This document shows, in pieces, positions 13,620 to 14,276 of a DNA stretch of 18,579 bases (its first letter is position 1; each line of letters begins with the position of its first letter). The stretch lies in IMG/VR virus record IMGVR_UViG_3300039366_000108; one strand, 5' to 3'. The notes below the pieces were generated by a model that did not search any database, had not been told where the DNA came from, and was given only the letters and a program-made list of their open reading frames with translations. A program made the position numbers and the translations under genes. The stretch is from a virus. Lineage: Duplodnaviria; Heunggongvirae; Uroviricota; Caudoviricetes.

Positions 13620-13648
13620 TTGTCGCAATGTGGATGAATGACTATAGT
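13620..13648 (+). promoter_or_regulatory. Candidate sigma70 promoter for the membrane protein gene
   Basis: -35 TTGTCG (13620-13625), 17-nt spacer, -10 TATAGT (13643-13648). Confidence 0.35.
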
Positions 13649-13694
13649 GCTGGTAGCTTTGACAGCAGAATCAGATTACTGAAGGAAATGTGTG

Positions 13695-14276
13695 ATGAGT
13701 TTTTTTAGTCTTTATGGGAAAGAACTATTTTCTTTTTTTATAACGATTTTAACATGGATACTGAATAACAGATTTAAAAGCAAGGCAAAGTTATCCTATG
13801 GTTATCAGCATGGATTTACTTTTCTTCTCAATGAACCCTTACGGAATGCCAATGGTGAGGTAATATCTAATTCACAGTTGGTGTATACACGATCTATTAT
13901 TCTTGTTAATGAAGGGCGAGAAAGTGCTACTAATATCTCATTGGTTTTTAACTATAAGCCAATGCATATTAATTTTTGGCCTGTCCACCATTTTGAAGAA
14001 AATATTGAACGGGATGGTCGCTATATTATCAAGTTTGAAAGCCTTTCACCTGGTGAGTCTATTCAATGTGAAATATTATCAATAAATAGAGAAGTTCCAA
14101 GTATTCTATCGATAAGATCTAAAGAGTGTGTGGCTGAGCCAGTGAATATCGTGATGCAAAAATCGATTAGTAATATTGCCTTACGTTGCTATCAATTATT
14201 AATACTTCTTGGAACTGGCACATTAACATATTTAATTATCGTTATTCTGCAATGGTTAGTCACTAAAACGGGATAA
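13695..14276 (+). CDS. AT-rich membrane protein (193 aa) with N- and C-terminal TM helices flanking a soluble domain
   Basis: SD GAAGGAAA 7 nt upstream of ATG; TM-like FSFFITILTWIL and LLILLGTGTLTYLIIVILQWLV; markedly AT-rich versus flanks. Confidence 0.65.
   Translation: MSFFSLYGKELFSFFITILTWILNNRFKSKAKLSYGYQHGFTFLLNEPLRNANGEVISNSQLVYTRSIILVNEGRESATNISLVFNYKPMHINFWPVHHFEENIERDGRYIIKFESLSPGESIQCEILSINREVPSILSIRSKECVAEPVNIVMQKSISNIALRCYQLLILLGTGTLTYLIIVILQWLVTKTG

Follow-up and report, generated by a model that had tools for sequence, protein, structure and literature searches.

The window, by which we mean the whole stretch of 18,579 nucleotides analysed here, carries at positions 13695-14276 of its plus strand a small AT-rich gene for a protein of 193 amino acids with a hydrophobic segment at each end, and this raises the question of what such a protein does and what kind of element carries it. 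A preliminary description of the DNA had proposed a superinfection-exclusion or abortive-infection effector, expressed from a promoter of its own and probably independent of a 532-aa protein encoded further downstream.

The 193-aa gene is genuine and evolves under purifying selection

The gene begins with an ATG at 13695, directly preceded by an in-frame GTG at 13692, and runs through 193 codons and a stop codon to 14276. The same CDS is annotated in RefSeq as a hypothetical protein (WP_182110945.1) of E. coli O78:H4 APEC E123, whose chromosome is 100% identical to the window over the region of the gene, and pairwise dN/dS values of the gene lie between 0.07 and 0.34. We conclude that the gene is genuine and subject to purifying selection. 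Its strong AT-richness was borne out as well, with a GC content of 0.326 (GC3 0.26) against 0.442 for the window. A Shine-Dalgarno sequence read from the DNA, AAGGA at 13682-13686 on the plus strand, lies 8 nt 5' of the ATG, in agreement with the ribosome-binding site that had been reported. The proposed promoter, TTGTCG-17-TATAGT at 13620-13648 on the plus strand (-35 hexamer at 13620-13625, -10 hexamer at 13643-13648), could be upheld in part: the sigma-70 promoter-like site is present, and copies from E. coli and Citrobacter, which share 72% protein identity, agree in both hexamers and vary in the spacer; but the match is 9 of 12, and a promoter scan of the region returned four sites of this class against 3.6 expected from shuffles, which is not above chance, so that the site is not statistically distinctive. 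A terminator search 3' of the gene found none.

The gene is a cassette in the cargo slot of a PICI-type satellite

On the evidence of its gene content and ends, the window carries a PICI-type phage satellite of about 16.9 kb at tRNA-Thr, located between proA and the pao/yagU region. The tRNA-Thr(CGT) gene at 832-907 (plus strand) represents the left attachment site, and an attR-like repeat of the tRNA 3' end (TTCCTATTATCG-CACCA), an 18-nt near-copy, is found at 17774-17791 on the plus strand. The island encodes an integrase, an AlpA-type HTH protein, an AntA antirepressor, an Icd-like protein, a DUF4222 protein, a D5/P4-family primase, ProQ and PerC, and no virion structural genes were found in it. 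All the features by which we recognised a PICI are thus present, namely an integrase with a tRNA attachment site, AlpA, a primase/replicase, a size of about 10-17 kb and the lack of virion structural genes. Gene set and chromosomal site also match those of EcCIMP1, a PICI that has been mobilised experimentally (PMC11773190), and immune systems have been reported at the 5' or 3' ends of PICIs, according to the passage of PMC11364771 that cites Fillol-Salom et al. 2022 on this point.

The dense repeat array that had been described upstream of the 193-aa gene is an iteron array at 13311-13575, where (A)AAGTGTCAA(C/G) occurs at least seven times, in one orientation or the other. It belongs to the satellite backbone and is conserved in satellites without the 193-aa gene. 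The array lies directly 3' of a gene for a 181-aa protein (within 12765-13575), whose N-terminal HTH weakly resembles the HTHs of small terminases and excisionases (phrog_57, E 2e-6), and the pair forms the backbone of about 170 E. coli satellites. Together, the 181-aa HTH gene and the iterons may constitute a packaging-specificity or replication site. When they were examined as a potential Rpp/cos packaging module of the EcCICFT073 type, lambda cosN was absent from the window, and the 181-aa protein had no sequence match to Rpp structures. Elsewhere in the island, an AT-rich intergenic region (GC about 0.36) lies directly 3' of the primase gene, at 9105-9477; the replication origin of a PICI is usually positioned just after the primase gene. 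A 380-aa backbone protein encoded at 10438-11580 has a lipoprotein-like N-terminus, with weak matches to LpoB and lipoprotein NCBIfam models, and no Pfam family was found for it.

Alignment of the window with the satellites of E. coli K99B, which lacks the 193-aa gene, SCU-104 and 357900 revealed that the gene resides in a single-gene cassette, a presence/absence indel of about 723 bp at 13602-14324 on the plus strand, with approximate boundaries. Compared with K99B, the cassette consists of the promoter-like site, the 193-aa gene and a trailer of 48 bp, and it lies between conserved flanks, the iteron array on one side and the ATG of a 60-aa ORF on the other. Among the approximately 170 complete E. 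coli genomes that share the satellite backbone, as defined by the 181-aa HTH gene and the iterons just upstream of the cassette, 15 contain the 193-aa gene and about 155 do not. An AT-rich cassette that comes and goes inside a satellite agrees with the earlier view of the gene as mobile-element cargo.

Directly downstream, the 60-aa ORF (14326-14508, plus strand) and an 85-aa ORF (14543-14800, minus strand) make up the convergent pair that had been described as GC-normal and as separating the 193-aa gene from the 532-aa gene; their GC content is indeed 0.45-0.49, and both are annotated in RefSeq. The 60-aa ORF was considered as a partner of the 193-aa gene and rejected, because it occurs in satellites with and without that gene. 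A 100-aa ORF at 14797-15099 on the minus strand is unannotated in RefSeq, and the region 15000-15400, upstream of the 532-aa gene, has an unusually high GC skew (about 0.3). The 532-aa protein itself, encoded at 15403-17001 on the plus strand, is GapS1 (NCBIfam NF047931, E 2.4e-130; so annotated in RefSeq), a defence system of one protein that was originally described from GMT elements (GAPS1 literature). Its gene is very AT-rich (GC about 0.30) and here forms a separate cargo module of a PICI-type satellite.

The contents of the slot vary between elements. In the window and in APEC E123 it holds the 193-aa gene, the 60-aa ORF and GapS1, while E. coli SCU-104 has the 193-aa gene, a 59-aa ORF, a DUF4747 protein and a 199-aa protein, and K99B has the content of SCU-104 minus the 193-aa gene. 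The satellite of E. coli 357900, which differs in integrase, primase and site, contains the 193-aa gene and a 59-aa ORF and nothing else, and that of Citrobacter freundii contains the 193-aa gene, an 86-aa ORF and bSEFIR (E 1e-113; 17144-18636 of locus L007). The slot is occupied by PARIS AriA/AriB in the E. coli O104:H4 outbreak strain C227-11 (E 5e-43 and 4e-22; L009, 7527-9483) and by an unknown pair of 275 aa and 259 aa in E. coli 98202 (L010, 7404-9011). Because the contents vary in this way, the slot downstream of the HTH gene and iterons is, to judge by the genes found in it, a defence hot spot, and the 193-aa gene is a self-contained module, independent of its neighbours. Its independence from the 532-aa gene, which the preliminary description had thought probable, is confirmed by its occurrence with GapS1, with the DUF4747 pair, with bSEFIR or with no further cargo, and by sister satellites that hold the same other cargo without it. 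Neither the DUF4747 and 199-aa pair (L003, 11238-12674) nor the 275-aa and 259-aa pair had a PADLOC match; both are further defence candidates.

The protein is predicted to hold a beta-sandwich between two membrane helices

Kyte-Doolittle hydropathy, averaged over 19 residues, peaked at 1.27 within residues 1-24 and at 2.16 within residues 165-190. Using 93 family sequences, AlphaFold2 predicted a helix at residues 2-26, a nine-strand beta-sandwich at 33-141 and a helix at 160-192 (pLDDT 94.5 and pTM 0.79, both helices included), and a run with 12 sequences gave the same layout at a pLDDT of 81. Hydropathy and structure prediction therefore agree on the hydrophobic helix at each end of a soluble domain that had been read from the sequence. 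The N-terminal helix, encoded at 13698-13772 on the plus strand, is marginally hydrophobic and has a conserved K9/E10 pair within it; then follow the basic residues R26, K28, K30 and K32. The beta-sandwich (13791-14117, plus strand) carries the family motifs H39, N72-x-G74-R-x-x-A78, F85-N86-x-x-P89, W95-P96, R109, E121, P135 and R141, and the C-terminal TM helix (14172-14270, plus strand) contains an invariant G173 and a conserved Y179. Structure searches returned generic beta-sandwich matches only. In three relatives (P0029, P0131 and P0153) the first beta hairpin has Pro/Gln/Ala-rich inserts of 30-60 residues, so this loop tolerates large disordered insertions.

By the positive-inside rule, the basic flanks of membrane helices lie on the cytoplasmic side. 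In all 93 aligned members the flanks on the domain side contain more K+R (mean 5.5) than the tails (mean 1.4). The flank that follows helix 1 has a mean of 3.4 and the one that precedes helix 2 a mean of 2.1, against 0.9 in the N tail and 0.5 in the C tail, and the N tail is net acidic. Because this charge bias holds in 93 of 93 members, the beta-sandwich is most probably located in the cytoplasm, in an N-out/C-out arrangement that leaves few residues in the periplasm; the call is that of the positive-inside rule only, applied to a protein whose helix 1 is weakly hydrophobic and carries K9/E10. The N-terminal basic region typical of an N-in signal anchor is absent from the 193-aa protein, and no conserved cysteine pair was found across the family. 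N-terminally extended relatives were considered as a topology clue and set aside, since the extensions looked like miscalled starts or low-complexity inserts.

The family is broad and absent from current annotation resources

A word-indexed search yielded 13 close relatives, the full-length ones being 193-194 aa and those with a source name coming from Escherichia, Citrobacter, Hafnia and Serratia. With an exhaustive profile search we obtained 578 clusters at 50% identity (E <= 1e-3), 339 of them at E <= 1e-10, and nearly all members have 180-200 aa and the same architecture. A scan of genome contigs gave a single locus, and scans of viral sequences with two distant members brought no useful result.

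The 193-aa protein matched no family of Pfam-A at E <= 0.1, none of PADLOC-DB 2.0 at E <= 0.1, and none of PHROGs v4 or NCBIfam. The 93 relatives likewise matched no model of these four collections beyond four isolated weak hits in PADLOC-DB 2.0 (best E 0.003), two in PHROGs v4, and traces of TRAP_beta and CARDB at E of about 0.1 in two to three members. Homology to SieB, Imm or Abi proteins, for which the preliminary description had suggested a search, was not detected, as none of these Pfam families appeared among the 93 relatives at E <= 1, and the protein fell into no PADLOC family either. The family profile had no match among PDB sequences, and no publication on the 193-aa protein turned up when the literature was searched for its accessions or for its description.

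Homologues occupy mobile-element slots, in several cases beside defence genes

In all 17 contexts compared, the gene has a lower GC content than the DNA around it; in Chromobacterium, for instance, the values are 0.38 and 0.65. In P2-like phages and prophages, the stretch from the last tail gene to att/int holds a homologue in vB_YenM_324 of Yersinia, in a Pantoea replicon of 30.8 kb and in three contigs from IMG/VR. A second subfamily within E. coli, with 43% identity (WP_071290238; B7NAB6_ECOLU belongs to its cluster), is found between attL and the integrase gene of a P2-like prophage by mntS (L034/L035, 14001-14582), and in a Chromobacterium violaceum prophage the homologue is flanked by gpS and gpV. 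A PICI-like element of another kind, in Hafnia (int, AlpA, ANT, DUF4222, AAA_25, TerS), has the homologue as its final gene. In one chromosomal island, 47 bp separate the homologue from a downstream gene whose DUF4145 product matches PD-T7-4 (E 6e-7), and DUF4238-Pers (E 8e-57) is encoded close by; in another, an integrase gene and a PDC-S21/SIR2-like gene (E 2e-116) lie in the vicinity of the homologue; and in Serratia entomophila it stands alone in a low-GC islet between housekeeping genes.

A metagenome scan for a distant subfamily gave 80 loci from soil, marine and freshwater samples. The 148 nearest neighbours at 39 non-redundant loci of this subfamily include integrases, resolvases and IS transposases, plus many housekeeping genes, and the strong defence matches among them are to HerA, a type I REase, SngA, PD-T7-5, PD-T7-1 and PDC-S43/48/60; four matches to pVip are probably generic radical-SAM enzymes. 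An all-against-all comparison of neighbours at the 42 larger metagenome loci found no recurrent partner gene. The DUF4145 and 231-aa neighbours were considered as partners and rejected as not recurrent. The latter, a 231-aa protein with no Pfam family, comes from a Dyella MAG and a second metagenome contig (L038, 208-903; L039, 183-878), where its gene precedes the homologue by 60 bp and has the same orientation; not having been seen elsewhere, it may be a lineage-specific partner. Locus L036 was considered as a Tn7-like transposon with the homologue as cargo, and this was dropped for want of Pfam support. In sum, defence neighbours occur in several independent contexts, and many other loci have housekeeping neighbours; the family turns up time and again in slots of a kind filled elsewhere by validated anti-phage systems, often beside defence genes.

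Discussion

The strongest statement that our data allow is that a horizontally mobile single-gene accessory cassette encodes a conserved inner-membrane protein. As to its function, our leading reading, drawn from context and in our judgement with about an even chance of being right, is that of a stand-alone, one-protein anti-phage module at the inner membrane that serves in competition between elements. We rank an anti-phage role first because the gene is a mobile cassette, lies in slots of validated systems, has defence neighbours and needs no obligate partner; the association with defence genes is real but partial. The gene is an accessory cassette, or 'moron', with its own promoter-like site and RBS in the 3' immunity hot spot of a PICI-type satellite. 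The two terminal helices would form a membrane hairpin, with the Ig-like beta-sandwich facing the cytoplasm and binding a phage-made or phage-perturbed factor, whereupon the glycine-containing TM hairpin would either permeabilise the membrane, an abortive infection, which we favour, or obstruct genome entry. We favour such a sensor-effector at the inner face of the membrane because the domain is probably cytoplasmic, the hairpin has an invariant glycine and the family is broad, although an Ig-like domain of 110 residues would be a small sensor. Of the original suggestion of an exclusion or abortive-infection effector, the anti-phage role thus remains in the lead, by virtue of the hot spot and the defence neighbours, whereas exclusion by a domain facing the periplasm is disfavoured by the charge bias.

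The protein could instead have nothing to do with phages and be an accessory membrane protein, a lysogenic-conversion or fitness factor such as a modulator of the envelope or of transport, carried in slots that tolerate insertions. Cargo slots do hold non-defence genes, the P2 hot spots for example carrying partition systems and a toxin (PMC9122126), and it would suit such a factor that the Serratia copy and many metagenome copies adjoin housekeeping genes and that the family has no defence homology. We nevertheless think this unlikely in view of the repeated adjacency to defence genes, of slots otherwise filled by validated defence systems, and of the spread over many types of element together with strong purifying selection, implying a benefit transferable between hosts.

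Quite unlikely, in our estimate, is classic superinfection exclusion, with the Ig-like domain in the periplasm blocking the DNA-delivery conduit or the receptor of incoming phages, as P22 SieA, T4 Imm and HK97 gp15 do. T4 Imm, HK97 gp15 and SieB of lambda and P22 are small inner-membrane proteins of prophage morons, and the exclusion families known to us are narrow and phage-specific. Homologues do sit at prophage ends and next to int, positions that are typical of exclusion genes expressed in the lysogen, and Ig-like and CBM-like folds are mostly extracytoplasmic. Like SieA, an inner-membrane protein of 162/164 aa for which interference with the DNA delivery conduit has been suggested (PMC10883804), the 193-aa protein is small, associated with the inner membrane and moron-encoded. 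It has no homology to SieA, Imm, gp15 or SieB, however, and no match to the SieB or Imm Pfam families, and whereas SieA has three TM helices, it has one helix at each end of a beta-sandwich of about 110-130 residues. For each of the 93 members the positive-inside rule puts that soluble domain on the cytoplasmic side, so a periplasmic exclusion domain is disfavoured; the protein is also without the basic N-terminal region of an N-in signal anchor and the family without a conserved cysteine pair. Finally, the family is taxonomically far broader than the exclusion proteins and occurs in chromosomal defence islands too.

A part in the life cycle of the carrying element, either in lysis timing as a holin- or antiholin-like protein or in interference with a helper phage at the membrane, appears very improbable. 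The Chromobacterium copy does lie inside a late operon, just after lysis and tail-completion genes, and a small membrane protein with a glycine-containing helix would suit such a part; but the gene is dispensable, being missing from about 155 of the roughly 170 E. coli satellites with this backbone, its position varies between phages, and it is also found outside any phage or satellite. That the ORF is spurious or decaying and without function, as its annotation as hypothetical might have allowed, is effectively refuted by the dN/dS values, a length of 193 aa kept across genera, the 578 clusters of like architecture and the AlphaFold2 pLDDT.

The anti-phage module that we prefer has counterparts in niche and, by analogy, in design. 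The 193-aa gene shares its niche, that is the PICI 3' variable slot and P2-like moron positions, with the hot-spot cargo of PICIs and of P4 and P2 (GapS1, PARIS, bSEFIR, Tai and the Rst_* systems of Rousset et al. 2022), and like that cargo it is short, AT-rich, apparently self-promoted and swapped as a cassette. It differs in having no sequence relationship to any of these systems and is a candidate by position. In design, the nearest analogue may be a CBASS effector of about the same size. Cap15 reportedly consists of two TM helices and a beta-barrel, in work attributed to Duncan-Lowey et al. 2021. Both proteins would combine, in about 200 aa, a pair of TM helices with a compact, cytoplasmic, all-beta ligand-binding domain, and the logic proposed for both would be the same, leading from binding through oligomerisation to disruption of the membrane. 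In Cap15, by contrast, the helices precede the domain and do not flank it, and the domain is a barrel, not a sandwich; moreover, no CD-NTase or other signal-generating gene was found beside any copy examined, so the 193-aa protein would have to sense its trigger directly. The CARDB, TRAP-beta and CBM2-type beta-sandwiches are extracytoplasmic and have no significant sequence match to the protein, and we imply no shared function with them. We know of no characterised system with the order helix, sandwich, helix.

Extended to all relatives, the same idea would make of the family a large, uncatalogued one-gene anti-phage group, in which a cytoplasmic Ig-like sensor held between two TM helices recognises a phage product directly and either opens or obstructs the inner membrane; the group would span hundreds of 50%-identity clusters across Proteobacteria, sampled from gut, soil, marine and freshwater sources, and would amount to a minimal sensor-effector design unlike those of known defence systems. 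We put this broad form forward tentatively and regard it as somewhat unlikely. Should the protein turn out not to be protective, it would be one more orphan moron. If it is protective, it would be a very compact addition to the defence catalogue, a single gene on 0.7 kb, with an architecture unmatched among characterised proteins. Relatives are widespread, and current annotation and defence-finding tools miss them, so that many genomes would gain a defence annotation if the protein is protective; and the cargo slots of PICIs and P2 still hold unrecognised modules.
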